A stretch of 62,271 nucleotides of DNA, taken from a virus. Its lineage: Duplodnaviria; Caudoviricetes. The stretch covers positions 1-62,271 of the IMG/VR virus record IMGVR_UViG_3300050135_000024; one strand, 5' to 3'. The notes beneath the pieces are model-generated. The model made no database searches, was not told the DNA's origin, and saw only the letters and a program-made list of their open reading frames with translations. This document shows, piece after piece, positions 3,141 to 59,308 of this stretch. Position 1 is the stretch's first letter. Each line of letters begins with the position of its first letter. Both the position numbers and the translations under genes were made by a program.

Positions 3141-3751
3141 ACCTCGCCGCGTGGTTCCACTGCTGGACACCGGGCGACTGGTCTGAGCCCACGATCGAGT
3201 TCGCCGACGCCTTGCAGGAGTCTGGGTTCGCTGGCCCGGTCTTCCTCGGGCTCATCGGCGACCCGCTCTGGTGCGCATCCGCTCATGGCGTGTTCCCCGA
3301 GGCGCAGGTCGCGGTCGAAGCCGAGACTGGCTTTGAGCAGGTCACGCTCGCCAAGGTCCGCGAGTACGCGCTCGAGCATGACGGGGCGTGCCTTTACGGA
3401 CACACCAAGGGTTCGGCGGACGTGACGGACTTCCGGGCGAAATGGCGCCGGAGCATGACACGGCTGGTCGTCTCGGACTGGCGGATCAACCTCCAGCACC
3501 TCGACCGCTTCGACGCGGTGGGCTGCCACTGGCTCACCCGCGAGGGCTTCCCAGGCTTCGAGCAGGAGTTCCCCGACGGAACACCGTTCTTCGGCGGCAA
3601 CTTCTGGATGGCCCGCTGCGACTACCTGCGCACGCTCCCGGAGCCTTCGACACGGAGCCGGTTCGATGCTGAGCGGTGGATCGGGCTGGGCGAGCCGCGT
3701 GTGCTCAATCTTCTGCCGGGGTGGCCGGCGGCTAGCCTGTTCGTCACGTGA
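3137..3751 (+). CDS. Putative glycosyltransferase (RgpF-like HTKG/GGNFW type)
   Basis: LYGHTKG and FFGGNFWMAR motifs; GTGA coupling at both ends. Confidence 0.55.
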   Translation: MNLAAWFHCWTPGDWSEPTIEFADALQESGFAGPVFLGLIGDPLWCASAHGVFPEAQVAVEAETGFEQVTLAKVREYALEHDGACLYGHTKGSADVTDFRAKWRRSMTRLVVSDWRINLQHLDRFDAVGCHWLTREGFPGFEQEFPDGTPFFGGNFWMARCDYLRTLPEPSTRSRFDAERWIGLGEPRVLNLLPGWPAASLFVT

Positions 3752-4305
3752 CCTGTATCGCTGGCATCGAGCACGACGGGAAGGTGTGGATCGGCGGCGA
3801 CTCGGCGGGAAGCAATGGCCGCTCGCTGACGATCCGGGCCGACGAGAAGGTCTGGTCCGACAAGGGCTTCGCGTTCGGCTTCACGAGCAGCTTTCGCATG
3901 GGCCAGCTCTTGCGCTACAAGCTGACGCTCGCGCTGGAGCGCCATGAGGTCCCAGCGGACGACGCGGCAGCCGAGATCAAGTTCATGTCCACGGCGTTCA
4001 TCGATGGCGTGCGCACTGTGCTCAAAGAGGGCGGCTACGCGAAAGCTCTCAATGGCGTCGAGAGTGGCGGCACGTTCCTTGTCGGCTGGCGCGGCAAGCT
4101 CTACCAAGTCGAGGATGACTTCCAGGTCGGGCGCGCGAGCGCTGGCTTTGATGCCGTCGGTTCGGGCGGTGACTGTGCAGTCGGCGCGCTGTACGCGCTG
4201 CGGCAGCTCAAGCAGACCCCGGAAGCTAAGCTGCTCACCGCCCTTGAGGCCGCCCAAGAGCTGACGCCGTATGTGCGCGGGCCGTTCAAGGTCGTATCGG
4301 CGTGA
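3748..4305 (+). CDS. HslV/proteasome-beta-like Ntn peptidase
   Basis: N-terminal MTCIAGI (Thr nucleophile), GGDS, K, and AVGSGG..A.GAL. Confidence 0.8.
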   Translation: MTCIAGIEHDGKVWIGGDSAGSNGRSLTIRADEKVWSDKGFAFGFTSSFRMGQLLRYKLTLALERHEVPADDAAAEIKFMSTAFIDGVRTVLKEGGYAKALNGVESGGTFLVGWRGKLYQVEDDFQVGRASAGFDAVGSGGDCAVGALYALRQLKQTPEAKLLTALEAAQELTPYVRGPFKVVSA

Positions 4306-4337
4306 CGGGCCACGAGACCAGCGGCTAGCCTGTTCGT

Positions 4338-4811
4338 GTGAGCGACCGTCCGCGCAATGGCGACGAACCGTGGAGGGAGTTGCCACGCGGGCTCAGCGTG
4401 GCGGCGCTGCCCGAGGGCGTTATGGCGTTCGGGCATCAGATGGTCCGAGCGATTGGCCCGGCGGGGGAGCAGCACGAGCTTGTCCAGCAGATCGAGCGTG
4501 AGGCGGTCAAGCACAAAGCCTCCAGGGTCTTTCTGAGCAAGTGCTACTTTCGCGTGTTGCCTCAGACCTACGGCGGCGGTGTCCTCGGCGGCAAGATGTT
4601 GCTCGAACAGCACTACTGCTACGCGACGTTCACCGATATCGCGGTGCCGGTCCACGTCGAACGTCGCAAGGATGCGATCGGCGAGTACGAGGAGCGCTGG
4701 ATGATCGAGCCGCCGGCCGAGACCATCCCTTACCGTGTGCTGGACGACTCGTGGAACGATGACTATTCGGCGCGGACGATTCGGCGCTGGCAAGTGATAA
4801 GTCGCTCGTGA
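4338..4811 (+). CDS. Hypothetical protein
   Basis: GTGA-coupled ORF between duplicated junction sequences. Confidence 0.55.
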   Translation: MSDRPRNGDEPWRELPRGLSVAALPEGVMAFGHQMVRAIGPAGEQHELVQQIEREAVKHKASRVFLSKCYFRVLPQTYGGGVLGGKMLLEQHYCYATFTDIAVPVHVERRKDAIGEYEERWMIEPPAETIPYRVLDDSWNDDYSARTIRRWQVISRS

Positions 4812-5338
4812 GGGGCCACGAGACCAGCGTGGTGATGCCCTACGTTCCGCCGCTTCGCCCCGAGGTGGTGCAGGCACTCGCAGGCTGGGATGTGGCGTTC
4901 GTCGATGTGTCCGGGAGCGACGAGGCGTACTGGCAACTGCTCGCCGACCTGTGGGCCAAGGGCGCCGGATTCCTCATCATCGAGCACGACATTCTCGTCA
5001 GGCCCGACTCCCTCGACGAGCTTGTGGCCTGCCATGAGCCGTGGTGCAGCTTCCAGGTTCCCTATGTCGGCCGGGTCTACGCGGGCCTGTCGTGCGCGAA
5101 GTTCTCGGCCGGCCTGATCGCCCGGTATCCCGACGCGCTTGACCGGATCGCCGAACTTGAAGACGAGAGGCATCCACCTAAGCATTGGTGTCGTCTAGAT
5201 AGTCATCTACAGTCGCACGTGTTGAATCCTGGAGGCGAGACGATGCATGTGCATGGGCCACCGTTGGGGCACCTTCGGGACGACTTGTCGCCCGCGAGCC
5301 CGTGGGCGATCGCGCCAGCGCACGACTGCTGGCGGTAA
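4808..5338 (+). CDS. Small GT-A-like glycosyltransferase
   Basis: FLIIEHDILV, GLSCAKF, HWCRLD and HVH..GHL. Confidence 0.55.
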   Translation: MRGHETSVVMPYVPPLRPEVVQALAGWDVAFVDVSGSDEAYWQLLADLWAKGAGFLIIEHDILVRPDSLDELVACHEPWCSFQVPYVGRVYAGLSCAKFSAGLIARYPDALDRIAELEDERHPPKHWCRLDSHLQSHVLNPGGETMHVHGPPLGHLRDDLSPASPWAIAPAHDCWR

Positions 5339-5359
5339 ACAATCCGAAACGGAGCTGCG

Positions 5360-5653
5360 ATGGGACTACACAAGCGGACGAACAAGGCGGGCAAACTCGA
5401 CGGGCAGGCGCCCGAGGTCGAGTTCGAGAAGGTCTACCGGGACCGGATCACCGGGTTCGAGGGCAAGTGCACGGGGTTCGTGAGCTACATCAGCGGCTGC
5501 GACCAGGTGTTGCTGCACGCCGGGCTCGACAAGGACGGCAAGATGCAGGCAGGCCAGTGGTTTGACGACGATCGGCTGATCGACGTCGAGGCCGAGGAGC
5601 AGGTCGCGAGCAAAGCACGCCGAGGCGCGGACACGCCAGCACCCGTGCGCTAA
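5360..5653 (+). CDS. Conserved-looking phage hypothetical protein
   Basis: RDRITGFEGxCTG..Y.SGCDQ...WFD pattern typical of small phage beta-barrel proteins. Confidence 0.65.
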   Translation: MGLHKRTNKAGKLDGQAPEVEFEKVYRDRITGFEGKCTGFVSYISGCDQVLLHAGLDKDGKMQAGQWFDDDRLIDVEAEEQVASKARRGADTPAPVR

Positions 5654-54277: not shown

Positions 54278-54434
54278 CCGACCTCGCCGCGATGGTCTGC
54301 ACCTGCGGGCATAGCGCCTACTGGCACCAAGGCTGCTGCGACAAATGCGACTGCCCGAAGTTCTCGCTCGCCCGCATTGACACCTACGAATCGCTGCGCG
54401 GCGAGATCGCCCGGCTGACCAAGGAGCGTCCGGC

Positions 54435-54911
54435 GTGAGCGATCTTGCGCAAGCGCTCATGGTGGCGATCCGCGTGCACGCCGACCAGCGCGACAAACAG
54501 GGCGAGCCATATCTGCTGCACGTGCTGCGGGTCGTGGAGGCCGTCACCTACGACACGAGGGTTGTCGCGGCGCTACACGATGTGCTGGAGGACGGGACGC
54601 CCAGCGTCGAGCATTTGCGTCCCGTTGGGCTGTCAGAGGACGAGTGGATCGCACTGGAAGCCCTGACACGGAAGCCGGATCGCTGGTCCTACAGGGAGTA
54701 CATTGACCAGATCGCGGGACACGCGGGCAGCGGCGGCGACATCGCCCGCGAGGTCAAGCTAGCCGACCTCCGCGACAACCTCGGACGCATCCCGGGCCCC
54801 GACCTATTGCTGAGCTTCGCGCCCGTGGAGCGGGACGCAGTGGCCGCGAAGTGGGCATCTCTCAAAGCCCGTTACGAGAAGGCGATCGACACCTTGGAGC
54901 GGGTCGCGTGA
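54435..54911 (+). CDS. HD-domain (p)ppGpp hydrolase-like protein
   Basis: H..Q.DK.G.PY..H..RV, ALHDVLED and VKLADL.DN. Confidence 0.8.
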   Translation: MSDLAQALMVAIRVHADQRDKQGEPYLLHVLRVVEAVTYDTRVVAALHDVLEDGTPSVEHLRPVGLSEDEWIALEALTRKPDRWSYREYIDQIAGHAGSGGDIAREVKLADLRDNLGRIPGPDLLLSFAPVERDAVAAKWASLKARYEKAIDTLERVA

Positions 54912-55228
54912 GCGCGCAGCCGCGACGATGGACGCTGCGACGGCCGAGCGATGCCTTCATGGCTCGTCAGGCGATGCCCAGCCTCCTGGGAGGCCTCGGC
55001 GCACCAGGCGATGCTTGTCCAGCGATCGAGCCCGGCGAGAAAGAGGTCCGCGTGCGTGAGGATCGAGCGACCGCAGCCGACATCGAGGCCGCGACGGAGG
55101 CGATCATGGCGAGCTACCGCAACCCTCAACGGGGCGATCGTAAAGCCCTCGAACGGCAGCGCTCAACAGCGCGTAAGCAGGCCCGGCTCGCCCTCGCTGC
55201 CGTGTTCTCAGAGGTGGAAGATGGCTGA
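54908..55228 (+). CDS. Hypothetical protein
   Basis: GTGA coupling; N-terminus (PRRWTL) resembles that of the split gene at 55221. Confidence 0.5.
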   Translation: MSAQPRRWTLRRPSDAFMARQAMPSLLGGLGAPGDACPAIEPGEKEVRVREDRATAADIEAATEAIMASYRNPQRGDRKALERQRSTARKQARLALAAVFSEVEDG

Positions 55229-55354
55229 GAGCACACCCCGGACATGGACGCTGAGCCGACGGCCACACCCCGACCACTTCCAGACTCTGGCCGAGGGAGA
55301 GCGGGTCGAGGTCATCGAGAATGGGGTATCCACTTTGATGGCCCGGAGGGAGAG

Positions 55355-55576
55355 GTGAGGTATCGCTTCGCAATCTGGCTCCTGCGCCCGCTGCTCATAG
55401 CTGAGCGCTGGAGATGTATAGGCGCGCTGGAGGCAACGGACGCAACCGACCGCAAAGGGCTGCGTTCTAGCGGCTATTTCCAGGGCCGTATCGGCGTTCT
55501 CGATGATCTGATCGCGCGCAAGTCGATCCCATGGATGGGACGCGGTCCCGTCACATTCGGAGACGACGATGCCTGA
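55355..55576 (+). CDS. Small hypothetical cargo gene
   Basis: GTG start after GGAGGGAGAG. Confidence 0.45.
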   Translation: MRYRFAIWLLRPLLIAERWRCIGALEATDATDRKGLRSSGYFQGRIGVLDDLIARKSIPWMGRGPVTFGDDDA

Positions 55577-55594
55577 CCAGGGCCGGAGCGAGAC

Positions 55595-56353
55595 ATGAAG
55601 CCGTTCTACGAGGACGAGCTGACGACGATCTATCACGGCGACTGTGTAAAGCTGCTACCGGAGTTGCCCAAGGCGGATCTGATCTTCACGTCGCCTCCCT
55701 ACAACCTCGGTATCACGACGGGCGGTGGCTTCGCTGACGTTCGGAAGTATCCCGATATGGCGATGGGGAAGTGGAGCGGCGGGAAGCTTGCTTACGGCTA
55801 CGAGGGCCACGAGGATGCAATGCCACTGGACGAGTACGAGGCGTGGCAGCGCTGCGTACTCCGCGGCTGCTGGGCCCAGCTCAGCGAGGTCGGGGCGATC
55901 TTCTACAACCACAAGCCGCGCGTCCAGGGCGGACTCCTTTGGATGCCATTGGAGTGCAATCCGGGGCTGCCGCTGCGACAGATCATCATCTGGGCCCGCG
56001 CTGGTGGTGTTAACTTCGCGCCGACGCACTATTGCCCGACGCACGAGTGGATCATGGTTCTCGCCAAGCCGGATTGGCGGCTCAAGAACAAGGGTGTGTC
56101 GGGCCTCGGGGATGTTTGGCGAGTCAATCAGGAGCCGAGCGACCATCCGGCGCCGTTCCCGCTTGGCCTGCCCGGCAAAGCGATTGAGTCGGTCGGGCCC
56201 AGCCTAGTGCTCGACCCGTTCATGGGCTCTGGCACGACCCTCAGGGCGGCGAAGGACGCGGGTATCCGTTCAATCGGAATCGAGACGAGTGAGCGCTACT
56301 GCGAGATGGCCGTCAAGCGGCTCGCGCAGGAGGCGCTCACATGGGCCAGCTAA
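55595..56353 (+). CDS. Site-specific DNA methyltransferase (N4-C/N6-A, beta class)
   Basis: TSPPY precedes HPAPFP and VLDPFMGSGTT. Confidence 0.92.
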   Translation: MKPFYEDELTTIYHGDCVKLLPELPKADLIFTSPPYNLGITTGGGFADVRKYPDMAMGKWSGGKLAYGYEGHEDAMPLDEYEAWQRCVLRGCWAQLSEVGAIFYNHKPRVQGGLLWMPLECNPGLPLRQIIIWARAGGVNFAPTHYCPTHEWIMVLAKPDWRLKNKGVSGLGDVWRVNQEPSDHPAPFPLGLPGKAIESVGPSLVLDPFMGSGTTLRAAKDAGIRSIGIETSERYCEMAVKRLAQEALTWAS

Positions 56354-56756
56354 GTAGATACCCCATCATCGAGAAGGAGCCGGTCTTCGACCTGCTGGAG
56401 CGCTGGTTTGAACTGCGGCCCAGACGGGCTCCCCTCCCGGGGTCGGTCGGCGAGGAGCTCGTGCAGCTTACCGAGGCCTTTCTCCGCGACCACGGCCGTC
56501 TGAAAGCCGACTCCGATGAGTGAGCGCGCAGTGAAGCGACCTTGCCACGGCGATGTCTGGGAGCAGATGCCAATGCGGGAGGGGAGTCCTAGCCCGCGCG
56601 GTAGATTCGTGGTTCTGCACGTATGCGGTCATCATGAGCCGCCAGAGGTTACGGGCGTGTGGCAGTCCAACGGACACGCTGATCCAGCGCTGCCTGATTC
56701 GATTCCCCTCCCGCGATTCGAGGAGCAGTTTCGGCTGGTAGAGCGGGAAGCCACCG

Positions 56757-57161
56757 ATGAGTGAGCGGGACGTGAGCGGATTGAGTTTTGGGGGTCTGCG
56801 CGAGCGCGTGATCGACGAGGGGATCGAGGCCGTACGCCGGGACTATACGAGGGCCGATCAGAAGGAAAAGCTGGAGGGGTCAGTCGCGGGCTTTGAGGGA
56901 TGCCGTGGCCTCGACCAGAACGAGCTGGCGGACCTGCTCACGACTGCGCGCGGGTGGGCGAACAAGCGGGCGCTGAGGGCCTACGACGATGCCGAGGCTG
57001 GCCGTAGCTACTGGTGGCACCGCTGCTTTGAGCTTGAGGTCGAGTGGGTCTGCAACGTTCTTTCTGCCGCCTTGATGAACAGCGGCCTGCCGACCATCGT
57101 TCCGCCGACCGCACGCGGGGCCATGAAGGCGGCGCAGATCCTCGGAGTGGCTGACCGATGA
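56757..57161 (+). CDS. Hypothetical protein
   Basis: GF..CR...YW..RC..LEVEWV.NVLSA pattern. Confidence 0.6.
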   Translation: MSERDVSGLSFGGLRERVIDEGIEAVRRDYTRADQKEKLEGSVAGFEGCRGLDQNELADLLTTARGWANKRALRAYDDAEAGRSYWWHRCFELEVEWVCNVLSAALMNSGLPTIVPPTARGAMKAAQILGVADR

Positions 57162-57565
57162 GTGAGCGTCTACAGGTCGAGGTCATACGAGCCGACGAGC
57201 TTGCCGTGGGCGACGAGGCGATCATCGTGGAGTTCCGGGGCAAGGTCGCCGCGACGCGAGCGCTGACCCGCAACGACGGTCCACACTTTCGACAAGGGGT
57301 CTGGATCACCCTGGCCAGCGACGAGGGCGCAGAACTGTCGAGCGACTCACCCGTCTTGCGTGTGGTTCGTGCCCCAGCCGAGCCGACAGAGGCACACGCG
57401 AAGGCGCTCGCGGCGCTTCTCTACGAAGACCAGAACCCCGGCACTCTCGGGCATCGCGTATGGGCCGACATTCCGCCCGTCTATCGAGAGGCGTGGTTCA
57501 GGCGAGCCAACCAGCTTCTCGCTCTCGTTGCTCGCGCCGAGACGGACTCGGAGAAGCCGTCGTGA
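57158..57565 (+). CDS. Hypothetical protein
   Basis: ATGA coupling. Confidence 0.55.
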   Translation: MSERLQVEVIRADELAVGDEAIIVEFRGKVAATRALTRNDGPHFRQGVWITLASDEGAELSSDSPVLRVVRAPAEPTEAHAKALAALLYEDQNPGTLGHRVWADIPPVYREAWFRRANQLLALVARAETDSEKPS

Positions 57566-57596
57566 CCGTAGCCGTCTACGACCGCTTCCTCGCGCC

Positions 57597-58157
57597 GTGA
57601 GACTCGCGTACGCTGATCCGCCCTACCTCGGCTGCTGTGGCCTGTACGGCCACGATCACCGTGAGGATTGGGGATGCTGGGACTTCGCGGTGAGCCACGC
57701 GAAGCTGATTGAGCACCTAACGATCCGCTACCCGGATGGCTGGGCGCTAAGCGCCAGCTCCCCTTCGCTGAGGACGCTTCTGCCGCTTTGCCCCGAGGAT
57801 GTGCGTGTCGCTGCGTGGGTCAAGCCGTTCTGTGCGTTCAAGCGTGGCGTGCGCCCCTGCTATGCATGGGAGCCAGTGAGCTTCCGCGGCGGCCGCAACC
57901 CCCCCGGCACGCCCCACGCGCCCCCAGAGAAGAACGGCGCGCAGACAACGCCCAAGGACTTCATCGCCGAGTCGATCACGCTACAGAAGGGGCTGACGGG
58001 CGCTAAGCCCCTGAAGGTCTGTCGCTGGATTCTCGAACTACTCGGCTACCAAGAGGACGACCAGCTGGTGGACCTATTCCCTGGCACTGGAGCAATGGAC
58101 GATGCGTTGGCTCGGCCTCCCCTGTTCGACACCCTGGAGCCAGTGACGTGGCGCTAA
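57597..58157 (+). CDS. Compact DNA adenine methyltransferase-like protein
   Basis: YADPPY, WVK, WEP, GAKP and DLFPGTG. Confidence 0.75.
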   Translation: MRLAYADPPYLGCCGLYGHDHREDWGCWDFAVSHAKLIEHLTIRYPDGWALSASSPSLRTLLPLCPEDVRVAAWVKPFCAFKRGVRPCYAWEPVSFRGGRNPPGTPHAPPEKNGAQTTPKDFIAESITLQKGLTGAKPLKVCRWILELLGYQEDDQLVDLFPGTGAMDDALARPPLFDTLEPVTWR

Positions 58158-59308
58158 GCGGCTTCGCGATCAATGGCACGGGCTTCTTCTCCCCACCGTT
58201 GACGATCGCTGGCCCCGTCCGGGCCGATTGCTCGAGCGAGGACCACGCGGGCAGCGTTTACGTCACGGTCTGCTCGGTAGCCGCATGCGCACTCATGTAC
58301 GCGCTGCTCGAGCGTCTTGGCCGCGATCGTGCCGCACTCCGCGCACGTCCTGCTCGTGTTCCTTGCATCGACCGGGATCACCTGGCGGCCAGCATCTTCC
58401 GCTTTGTCCGCCAGGTACGTGAGGAACTGTCCCCACCCCTGATCGTTCACGTCTCGTGCGAGGGCGCTCCGGGCGAGCCCACGCACATTCAAGTTCTCGA
58501 CCGCGATCACGTCGAAGCGCTCGACCAGCTGCCGGCTCAGCTTGTGCGCGTGGTCGCGACGCACATTGCGCTCGTGTTCACGGTGGCGGCCGAGCAGCGT
58601 CGCCGCCTTGCGCCTGCCGTGAGAGCCGCGCTGACGCCGGGCGACCCTGCGCGCGGCGCGTCTGACCTTCGCGGCTGCGGCGCGCTGCGCCCGCGGCCCG
58701 GCGATCAGCTCGCCAGTCGAGAGGGCCGCGAAGGTGGAGACGCCAAGATCGAGCCCGACGCTCTCGCCCGTCGCCGGCAGCGGCCGGGGTGCCACGCCGT
58801 CGAGCGCGATCGACGCGAACCATCGGCCGTTGCGGCGTGTCACCTGCGCGGTGCAGAGCTTCGCGCCAGCGGGGAGCGCCCGGTGCATCTTGAGCTTGAC
58901 GTGCCCGACGGCCTGCAAGCGCAGCCGGCCCGCGTCCGTGACCGCAGCGCCATTACCGATCGCCCACTCCAGCGTGTCGAACCGCTGACGACTGCGGAAC
59001 CTCGGATAGCCCGGCTTCTCGCCCGCCTTGCATCGACGGTAGAACGCCTGCATCGCTCGATCGAGACGGCGCAGCGTGGCCCGCTGCGAGTTGAAGCTGA
59101 CCTCGGGGTCGAGGATTCCCTCAGCACGGAGCGTCTTGAGCTCGGCATCCTGGTCATAGAGGCTGACCGACCGGCCCTGCTCGTGCCACGCGTCGCGGCG
59201 ATGCTGGAGCGCCGCGTTGTACAGGTCGCACGCTTCGCCGAGCTGCTGCTCGAGCGCCTGTGCCTGCCTGCGCGTCGGATACAGGCGATATCGGTAGGTG
59301 CGGCGCAC
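58154..59308 (-). CDS. tnpB: TnpB RNA-guided endonuclease (IS200/IS605 family, no tnpA)
   Basis: YRYRLYPT, GYPRFR, RuvC D-E-D (GLDLG, AVENL, DRDVNAA) and CxxC zinc finger; right end GTCAC at 58147-58143. Confidence 0.92.
   Translation of the reverse strand: MRRTYRYRLYPTRRQAQALEQQLGEACDLYNAALQHRRDAWHEQGRSVSLYDQDAELKTLRAEGILDPEVSFNSQRATLRRLDRAMQAFYRRCKAGEKPGYPRFRSRQRFDTLEWAIGNGAAVTDAGRLRLQAVGHVKLKMHRALPAGAKLCTAQVTRRNGRWFASIALDGVAPRPLPATGESVGLDLGVSTFAALSTGELIAGPRAQRAAAAKVRRAARRVARRQRGSHGRRKAATLLGRHREHERNVRRDHAHKLSRQLVERFDVIAVENLNVRGLARSALARDVNDQGWGQFLTYLADKAEDAGRQVIPVDARNTSRTCAECGTIAAKTLEQRVHECACGYRADRDVNAARVVLARAIGPDGASDRQRWGEEARAIDREAA

Follow-up and report, generated by a model that had tools for sequence, protein, structure and literature searches.

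Positions 55321-56366 of the IMG/VR virus record IMGVR_UViG_3300050135_000024 (Duplodnaviria; Caudoviricetes), which is here analyzed over its whole 62,271 nt and referred to as "the window," hold a 1046-nt element that is very probably a nonautonomous, cargo-bearing derivative of the IS1595 family of insertion sequences (IS), of the mobile insertion cassette (MIC) type. The element is bounded by 24-nt terminal inverted repeats that pair at 21 of 24 positions, is flanked by an 8-bp target-site duplication, carries a DNA methyltransferase gene, and splits a small phage gene. The evidence comes from the window itself, from loci in viral and prokaryotic contigs that hold the same repeats, some of them around an IS1595-family transposase, and from metagenome contigs that break away from the window exactly at the ends of the element.

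Anatomy of the element and the gene it interrupts

A sequence-only reading of this DNA had proposed that TGGGGTATCCACTTTGATGGCCC at 55322-55344 matches the reverse complement of 56343-56365, TGGGGTATCTACTTAGCTGGCCC, at 20 of 23 positions and that a 10-base direct repeat, TCATCGAGAA, lies at 55312-55321 and 56366-56375. Both were confirmed directly in the window, the direct repeat being exact. One outer base pairs on each side (A at 55321, T at 56366), which gives the 24-nt repeats of Table 1. That reading had offered two interpretations of the duplication, one of 10 bp and one of 8 bp with a 24-nt repeat, and it is the second that stands. An 8-bp duplication holds in 11 of the 12 duplication-flanked repeat pairs described below (at L012 it is 9 bp; compared loci carry the prefix L), and the 10-bp interpretation was rejected, as it fails in the sister copies L005, L012, L073, and L075. 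The apparent 10 bp in the window follows from a T...A target preference.

With up to 3 mismatches allowed, the repeat motif occurs exactly twice in the window, which holds no further copy within 7 mismatches (matches at 8 to 9 mismatches look like noise). The small size of the repeats would fit an origin of both the inverted pair and the direct repeat by chance. However, none of 100 dinucleotide-preserving shuffles of the window yielded two or more matches to the motif, and the motif recurs as duplication-flanked pairs in many contigs; the probability left to this already refuted explanation is negligible.

Table 1. Features of the element and its insertion site (positions in the window).
Feature	Positions	Strand	Remarks
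5' half of interrupted small phage gene, 33 codons to insertion point	55221..55320	+	ORF listing; P0008 match
Left target-site duplication, CATCGAGA	55313..55320	.	exact repeat
Left 24-nt terminal inverted repeat, ATGGGGTATCCACTTTGATGGCCC	55321..55344	+	first 23 nt identical to L003 end
Entry module, GGAGGGAGAG (Shine-Dalgarno-like) then GTG 55355	55345..55357	+	
Small open reading frame (ORF), 73 codons	55355..55576	+	GC at codon positions 1/2/3 (GC1/2/3) = 0.64/0.53/0.68
Cargo methyltransferase gene, 252 aa	55595..56353	+	PF01555 2.6e-29; phrog_67 4.7e-51
Exit module, AGGAGG 56328-56333, 7-nt spacer, ATG 56341-56343	56328..56343	+	
Right 24-nt terminal inverted repeat, reverse complement ATGGGGTATCTACTTAGCTGGCCC	56343..56366	-	24/24 identical to L003 end
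Right target-site duplication, CATCGAGA	56367..56374	.	exact repeat
3' half of interrupted gene, within restart ORF 56341-56523	56367..56523	+	one residue differs from P0008 C-terminal part

The cargo gene is predicted to encode an intact beta-class N6/N4 DNA methyltransferase, as the sequence-only reading had claimed. Its product matches PF01555 over the full length of the profile (103.2 bits, cut-off 26.7; profile positions 2-221 of 221), with motif IV (SPPY) preceding motif I (FMGSGTT) in the translation, and its GC3 is 0.81. The closest solved relative is 8s9m, named DNA cytosine-N4 methyltransferase (1.1e-16); adenine methyltransferase structures trail it at 1e-12 to 1e-9, and NCBIfam adenine methyltransferase matches fall far under their cut-offs. 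The SPPY motif is associated with N4-cytosine methyltransferases, and this specificity is likely for the predicted enzyme. Its TAA stop codon (56351-56353) lies inside the right repeat, another point on which the earlier description proved accurate. That description had counted a small ORF as a second part of the cargo, but the ORF is doubtful as a real gene: its GC3 is just 0.68 and it has no homologue, with no Pfam or PHROGs family, no tblastn match in the compared loci, and no Atlas match. A search with the transposase profile PF12762 gave no match in the element or anywhere in the 62,271-nt record, and tblastn of the transposase of L003 (see below) gave none in the window. The element therefore lacks a transposase, as had been claimed, and is a nonautonomous derivative rather than an IS.

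Conceptual removal of the element leaves a single 82-codon ORF, in agreement with the claim that excision would restore one reading frame. The two half-genes have GC1/2/3 values of 0.68/0.52/0.79 (5') and 0.77/0.40/0.81 (3'). With the element in place, the reading frame of the 5' half passes through the left repeat and ends at TGA 55356-55358, and ATG 56341 opens a 60-aa ORF that is indeed in frame with the downstream half-gene.

The interruption is best seen by comparison with P0008 (84 aa, encoded on a contig of 2,833 nt), a protein that falls in the same 90% cluster as the restart ORF. P0008 shares STPRTWTL (8/8) with the 5' half at its N-terminus and VEVIE just before the junction, runs unbroken across the junction, and differs from the 3' half at one of its last 50 residues; 62 of 86 aligned columns are identical between P0008 and the joined halves. 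The score of the 5' half against P0008, with the duplication-encoded residues left out, was reached by none of 5000 shuffles. Because P0008 is continuous across the junction, both flanks are one gene in a relative, and P0008 represents, at the protein level, the empty allele that the sequence-only reading had anticipated. A full HMMER search with the 3' half also found P0005 (88 aa, 57% identity, aligned at its residues 39-87) and P0006 (205 aa, 53% identity, C-terminal match), both of which span the insertion site as well. Other searches added nothing: viral contigs searched with the 3' half gave 372 pattern matches, none a relative; tblastn of both half-genes against loci L003-L046 gave no match; a homologous-protein search with the 3' half returned just the restart ORF; a related-locus search for P0008 in metagenome contigs gave none; and a back-translated P0008 pattern had 0 matches in metagenome contigs and in viral contigs. 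In P0006, the N-terminal part resembles the window ORF 57158-57565 and the C-terminal 51 residues match the interrupted gene, a layout that suggests that domains have been shuffled between small phage proteins of this kind.

The record itself is estimated to be 94% complete and has a GC content of ~65%. Matches to PHROGs for endolysin and for major head, tape measure, minor tail, and virion structural proteins identify it as a tailed phage. Sequence near-identical to it is present in metagenome runs from peat and bog. The insertion site lies in a block of small co-oriented genes that adjoins an endonuclease VII gene and an HD-domain gene. When 54900-56800 was compared with isolated phages by blastn, the sole match was to Gordonia phage BritBrat, in its methyltransferase gene (25% of the query, at 70.7% identity).

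Sister elements, an IS1595-family partner, and signs of recent movement

Scanning viral contigs with the repeat motif returned 11 loci, 5 of which have two inverted copies at differing spacings, and a looser pattern returned 18 stretches in viral contigs and 26 in prokaryotic genome contigs. By relaxed matching (6 or fewer mismatches in 24), 14 repeat pairs were defined. Eleven of these are flanked by perfect 8-bp duplications, one by a 9-bp duplication (L012), and two by none (L008 and L013). Besides the window element, 11 duplication-flanked elements were thus found, with lengths of 203 to 2630 nt (Table 2); the same repeats with other cargoes in other genomes, which the sequence-only reading had pointed to, include a pair around a C5 methyltransferase. 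The targets have a common preference: across the 11 8-bp sites, T precedes the duplication in 10 and A follows it in 9, while within the duplication C stands at position 1 in 10, T at position 2 in 8, C at position 4 in 8, and a purine at position 8 in all 11.

Table 2. Elements bounded by the repeat pair, ordered by length.
Locus	Length (nt)	Duplication	Content
L075	203	8 bp	noncoding
L005	506	8 bp	small protein, no family
L004	620	8 bp	small protein, no family
L073	672	8 bp	207-aa protein of a very large unnamed family, phrog_12600, invariant PPC motif
L008/L013 (same element)	786	none	PF01555 methyltransferase, 2.5e-28
L012	1034	9 bp	PF00145 C5 methyltransferase, 5.9e-38
Window	1046	8 bp	PF01555 methyltransferase
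L006	1370	8 bp	small protein, no family
L009	1468	8 bp	196-aa protein, DPPY motif; Atlas model against PF01555 clusters, TM 0.66-0.71 (lead)
L064	1827	8 bp	transposase
L003	2010	8 bp	transposase and passenger
L007	2550	8 bp	transposase and passenger
L079	2630	8 bp	transposase and passenger

Autonomous copies of the element, a partner of the kind that had been predicted, were found among these loci. Between the same repeats as in the window, L003 and L007 encode proteins of 320 and 327 aa that combine an ISXO2-like DDE domain (PF12762; 1.8e-30 and 1.3e-31) with an IS1595 zinc ribbon (PF12760), and the L003 protein scores 184.8 bits against NCBIfam NF033547 (IS1595 family transposase; cut-off, 75). 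tblastn of the L003 transposase against the compared loci identified full-length copies at L079 (80% identity), L074 (76%), and L064 (73%). In all, the transposase sits inside the same repeats at the viral loci L003, L007, and L079 and at L064, the last being on a 484-kb contig of a Solirubrobacterales metagenome-assembled genome (MAG), with duplication CGTCGACA. The window repeats are 23/23 and 24/24 identical to those of L003 and form the same asymmetric variant pair. Because of this shared pair, an L003-type enzyme is the likely mobilizer of the window element, which it would act upon in trans. Truncated transposase remnants at four repeat-holding loci, L010 (residues 1-104), L077 (244-320), L011 (273-319), and L073 (287-319), resemble intermediate stages between autonomous elements and those that carry cargo only. 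Autonomous elements have TGTGGTACAAT beside one repeat, which may be an extended -10-like motif.

A pattern search built from the L003/L007 alignment (two N-terminal peptide patterns) returned just those two known loci, and distant relatives (<34% identity) were present in 3 of 50,697 GenBank phage records, all of them metagenomic fragments. A relative with 50% identity to the L003 transposase is encoded at L063, on a Desulfobacterales MAG contig. Within the order to which L064 belongs, 81 genomes were sampled and 19 have homologues of the IS1595 transposase, of which only that in the L064 genome exceeds 52% identity. The Solirubrobacterales copy gives a lead to the host rather than an assignment.

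These data place the elements in the IS1595 lineage, with a zinc ribbon-bearing DDE transposase in the autonomous copies, repeats of ~25 bp, and an 8-bp duplication. The window element has the repeats of an autonomous IS, a passenger gene, and no transposase, and the designation as a mobile insertion cassette that was first proposed from the letters of the window is therefore supported. With 1046 nt and an intact 252-aa gene it is not a miniature inverted-repeat transposable element (MITE), a term for which the 203-nt L075 would qualify. The passages of PMC5704250 on the IS1595-family elements MTnSag1 and tISCpe8 give them 25-bp repeats and 8-bp direct repeats, and a 24- to 25-nt repeat with an 8-bp duplication is also reported for the IS1016 group in the relevant part of PMC10045372.

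Several side observations concern the wider distribution and rearrangement of the repeats. The 786-nt methyltransferase cassette lies at 2249-3034 in L008 and at 1091-1876 in L013, and the two copies are 99.9% identical. Their right flank is common, their left flanks differ, and L008 has an extra repeat copy at 4781, an arrangement that suggests recombination or adjacent deletion at the cassette ends. MITE-like pairs of related repeats (GGGGTATCCACTT...), ~120 to 210 nt apart and several with 8-bp duplications, occur in viral locus L075 (10820-11022) and in genome contigs (L047, L050, L056, L057, L066, L067, and L070), the MAG labels being Pseudomonadota, Desulfocapsaceae, Deltaproteobacteria, Actinomycetes, Desulfobulbaceae, and Verrucomicrobiota. 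Repeats of this type are widely distributed, far outside the phage lineage as well. A 67-kb viral record (G002, which includes L004, L077, and L078) has four repeat copies, namely the complete 620-nt cassette and two single ends, one of which (at L077) adjoins a C-terminal remnant of the transposase; this indicates repeated hits on one phage genome.

To look at movement, contigs of four metagenome runs (X1 to X4) were aligned to window positions 54300-57300; X1 and X2 are possibly the source of the window, and X3 is from a different study. A 902-nt contig of X3 follows 55321-56200 with 0 differences and continues past 55321 with 22 nt of unlike sequence, and an 1185-nt contig follows 56172-56366 with 2 differences and continues past 56366 with 990 nt of unlike sequence. 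The breakpoints, 55321 and 56366, are the exact outer ends of the 24-nt repeats. Because the contigs break there, they are read as the same element in another context, and they indicate that X3 holds a near-identical element with other flanks. In X4, a 413-nt contig is identical to the window across its right junction.

A static history would account for part of this evidence, in that a single ancestral transposition could have been followed by fixation, the cassette now being immobile and the methyltransferase retained as a phage gene. Such a fossil would explain why the record has no transposase, why the four runs showed no excision joint, why contigs of X1, X2, and X4 show the right junction of the window, and why the repeats have 3 differences over their 24 positions. 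It does not sit well with the X3 element, which is 0 to 2 differences from that of the window and whose contigs leave the window sequence precisely where the two repeats end, or with L003, which has the same asymmetric repeat pair together with an intact transposase. By that comparison, the three repeat differences are a feature of the lineage, not decay. We regard the fossil explanation as improbable relative to a mobile, trans-mobilized cassette.

Cargoes, resident homologues, and translation signals at the ends

With L008 and L013 taken as one, there are eight distinct transposase-less coding elements. Five of the eight carry methyltransferases or methyltransferase-like proteins, in at least three classes, and the other three cargo types are without recognizable function (Table 2). 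Passenger genes also lie within the repeats beside the transposase at L003, L007, and L079. Pfam gave no family for the cargo in L003-L007, L009, L064, L073, and L079, and among the other cargoes PHROGs gave just phrog_12600 (function unknown), for that of L073. The AlphaFold model of the L073 cargo has a predicted local distance difference test (pLDDT) value of 88.9, and in a structure comparison all 50 of the matches listed were C5 cytosine methyltransferases; the top listed match aligned 180 of 207 residues with a Z of 9.2, which is middling by the calibration of the tool. The L073 gene (3497-4117, minus strand) and proteins P0028-P0147 belong to an unnamed family with >8000 matches, no Pfam entry, and invariant HPPC and EHP motifs. 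The fold predicted for it is most like the catalytic domains of C5 cytosine methyltransferases (Z 8-9), and this family may be an unrecognized compact DNA-modification enzyme.

Homologues of the cargo genes also occur as ordinary phage genes without repeats. In L014, a 61-kb viral contig, three consecutive methyltransferase-like genes (NPPY, SPPY, and DPPW) occupy 3394-5476 with no repeat, and the middle one is 65% identical to the cargo methyltransferase of the window. Two such homologues are resident in the window. The first, ORF 56516-56764 (plus strand), stands beside the insertion and is 68% identical to the L004 cargo and homologous to the L079 passenger; its family has no known function and has conserved PCHGDVWEQ and HVCGHH motifs. 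The second, ORF 57558-58157 (plus strand), encodes a divergent methyltransferase-like protein with a DPPY motif that is 44% identical to the L009 cargo and has no Pfam, NCBIfam, or PHROGs family. The phage probably carries two DNA methyltransferases, this resident one and the one that the cassette brought in. Because the window has no further repeats within 7 mismatches, neither resident homologue is visibly inside an old element, and the presence of passenger-gene homologues among resident phage genes indicates that the cassettes sample the accessory gene pool of these phages.

Directly after the resident methyltransferase-like gene, on the minus strand at 58154-59308, is a gene for a TnpB-type RNA-guided endonuclease (384 aa; NF040570, 1.3e-76; IS200/IS605 TnpB, 2.9e-62), where the GC climbs to 0.75. 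With it, the accessory arm of the window that holds the cassette has another mobile element, unrelated to the first.

We infer an anti-restriction benefit for the window methyltransferase, although other roles can be proposed: the enzyme could affect the timing of replication or packaging, protect against a phage-encoded nuclease, or be a neutral hitchhiker. That the phage already has a methyltransferase-like gene, and that three of the eight cargo types have no recognizable function, are both in keeping with such roles. Orphan phage methyltransferases are, however, generally read as anti-restriction, and a set of cargoes in which five of eight are methyltransferases or methyltransferase-like, from at least three classes, is what would be expected under selection for diversifying DNA modification. 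A role other than anti-restriction is thus possible but is the less favored alternative.

The ends of the element bear translation signals (Table 1). At the entry end, the GTG overlaps the TGA that closes the truncated upstream half-gene (GTGA). Of the three frames that read inward through the left repeat, one stops within the repeat, one continues in frame into the cargo start, and the third, that of the upstream half-gene, ends at this TGA. Around unrelated cargoes, the window element and that of L012 agree at 95% over their first 43 nt and have their last 25 nt in common, and in L012 the same entry module starts the C5 methyltransferase. At the exit end, the module lies thirteen nt before the cargo stop and reads outward through the right repeat as MGQLSRYPI into the downstream half-gene.

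Similar starts are present elsewhere in the family. Of 13 elements, 10 have an ATG or GTG 2 to 14 nt inside one repeat, always in the one frame that gives G-H/Q-L-S-G/R-Y-P across the repeat. Given a chance of 0.24 per element for such a start at either end, estimated on the same loci, 10 of 13 corresponds to P = 8.6e-5; if five codons that abut the repeat and are possibly inherited are discounted, 5 of 8 remain (P = 0.023). A promoter and terminator scan of 54900-56800, based on weak consensus matches, found no terminator-like site and no plus-strand promoter-like site, and its one promoter-like site is on the minus strand. Because AGGAGG and ATG read out through the repeat and there is no terminator-like site in this region, we infer that the insertion would be nonpolar, with the downstream half-gene translationally restarted.

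Weight of the evidence and meaning for phage biology

A number of points weigh against the interpretation as a mobile cassette with adaptor-like ends, or limit parts of it. The empty allele is known from protein alone, a single copy of CATCGAGA at the P0008 empty site not having been seen in nucleotides. In the four runs, no contig or read was seen to bridge the two flanks, although contigs drop rare variants. The X3 copy is known by its breakpoints alone, with its own duplication not in view; contigs of this type break at repeats, and they may derive from a close phage relative with diverged flanks. The methyltransferase labels of the L009 and L073 cargoes, which come from models, are leads only. 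As for the restart, its frame is coding-like by codon-position GC in just 4 of the 10 start-bearing elements (12 exit ends were tabulated), so that in-frame restart is not established as a general rule. The AGGAGG is moreover encoded by the conserved ...AQE... C-terminus of this methyltransferase lineage, and the Shine-Dalgarno sequence before the restart ATG may therefore be a by-product. Two further points concern the ends themselves: the 43 and 25 nt shared by the window and L012 around unrelated cargoes are left unexplained by transposition of a cassette, and L008 and L013 hold the same 786-nt element without a duplication.

These last two points are those that would be expected if the elements were products of recombination, or of "moron"-type gene-cassette exchange between phages, with the inverted repeats as recombination scars: the window and L012 share just their terminal sequences, and the left flanks of L008 and L013 differ. 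They do show that recombination acts on these elements. As the origin of the repeats and duplications it is very unlikely, since perfect 8-bp duplications occur at 11 targets with a common preference (and a 9-bp duplication at a twelfth), the same repeats enclose a DDE transposase, and the duplication length equals the IS1595-family value.

We therefore keep to a cassette moved by transposition, for which the following course of events may be proposed. An IS1595-family DDE transposase would act in trans, bind both 24-nt repeats, and insert the element with an 8-bp staggered cut; its source would be an autonomous copy, carried by a phage (co-infecting or resident) or by the chromosome of the host. 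Insertion would favor CTyCrnnR between a T and an A, and in this case the element would have landed in the 82-codon gene, in the early/DNA-metabolism arm of a peat tailed phage. The orphan beta-class methyltransferase, co-oriented with the phage operon, would most likely be transcribed by read-through and would modify the phage DNA, protecting it from host restriction. The entry end would close incoming frames and then provide a Shine-Dalgarno sequence and a start codon; at the exit end, the cargo would stop within the repeat and a Shine-Dalgarno sequence and ATG would reopen the downstream half-gene, so that polarity would be lessened.

Several components of this system have precedents. MICs, such as MIC231 of the Bacillus cereus group and the Tn3-type MICs of Xanthomonas, have IS-type repeats, passenger genes, no transposase, and the duplication of the parental IS, and are presumed to be mobilized in trans. 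By that definition, the window element differs in its parental family (IS1595), in its replicon (a phage), and in having ends with translation start and stop signals. The mycobacteriophage elements MPME1 and MPME2 (~440 bp, 11-bp repeats, and a small ORF of their own), specific to Actinomycetota phage genomes, are likewise small mobile elements of phage genomes, but they have neither a methyltransferase cargo nor an IS1595 transposase. The IS1595 family itself was reportedly defined in 2009 by Siguier, Gagnevin, and Chandler.

Within that family, there is a close likeness to transporter IS (tIS) with passenger genes, such as tISCpe8 and MTnSag1: the autonomous copies found here have a transposase of the same type (PF12762 and PF12760; NF033547), and the repeats of ~25 bp and the 8-bp duplication agree with those given in PMC5704250. 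Unlike these, the window element has no transposase, resides in a phage rather than a plasmid or chromosome, and carries a methyltransferase instead of a resistance or mobilization gene. Furuta, Abe, and Kobayashi (2010; PMC2853133) described restriction-modification (R-M) genes between imperfect inverted repeats with an 8-bp duplication and, in the part of their paper that deals with these cases, did not exclude a transposase acting in trans. Those cases, as presented there, are in bacterial chromosomes, are mostly complete R-M systems, and have no identified partner transposase, whereas here there is a partner family, an orphan methyltransferase, and a phage. Viral MITEs, which according to the main text of Nadal-Molero et al. 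(2024; PMC11602168) are small, noncoding, and present in 0.01% of viral genomes, resemble the window family as nonautonomous, inverted-repeat-bounded elements of phage and virus genomes, and the noncoding L075 is a member of that family. None of the terms IS1595, methyltransferase, cargo, and passenger occurs in that main text, and the supplementary lists of the survey may include this repeat family. IS1595 elements with passengers, MICs, MITEs, and R-M genes between repeats with 8-bp duplications are thus already known. Neither a family of IS1595-derived cargo cassettes in phages nor one largely for methyltransferases is described in the literature searched, a coverage that leaves out most subscription journals.

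We tentatively suggest, as a possibility that is less likely than not, that these elements are phage-adapted plug-in gene cassettes rather than random IS debris. Their IS1595-derived ends would serve as translational adaptors, the entry end closing or fusing all three incoming frames and providing a Shine-Dalgarno sequence and start codon for the cargo, and the exit end providing the cargo stop and restarting translation of the disrupted gene in a conserved frame. A shared, trans-transposed exchange would move DNA-modification genes (N4/N6, C5, and divergent methyltransferases) and small accessory genes among unrelated soil phages, driven by a restriction arms race. If this is true, the cassettes could enter tightly packed phage operons without polarity.

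According to the main text of PMC11602168, transposable elements are rare in phage genomes, with packaging limits and dense operons selecting against them. The conserved translation signals into and out of the element suggest how a mobile element is tolerated in a phage operon. With its defined 24-nt ends, partner transposase, and target preference, the element is experimentally tractable, and the repeat motif offers a handle for mining phage accessory genes, among them three recurrent cargo families without known function. A transposase-less cassette family that moves several classes of methyltransferase from phage to phage would be a concrete route for the rapid spread of anti-restriction functions, beside phage recombination.

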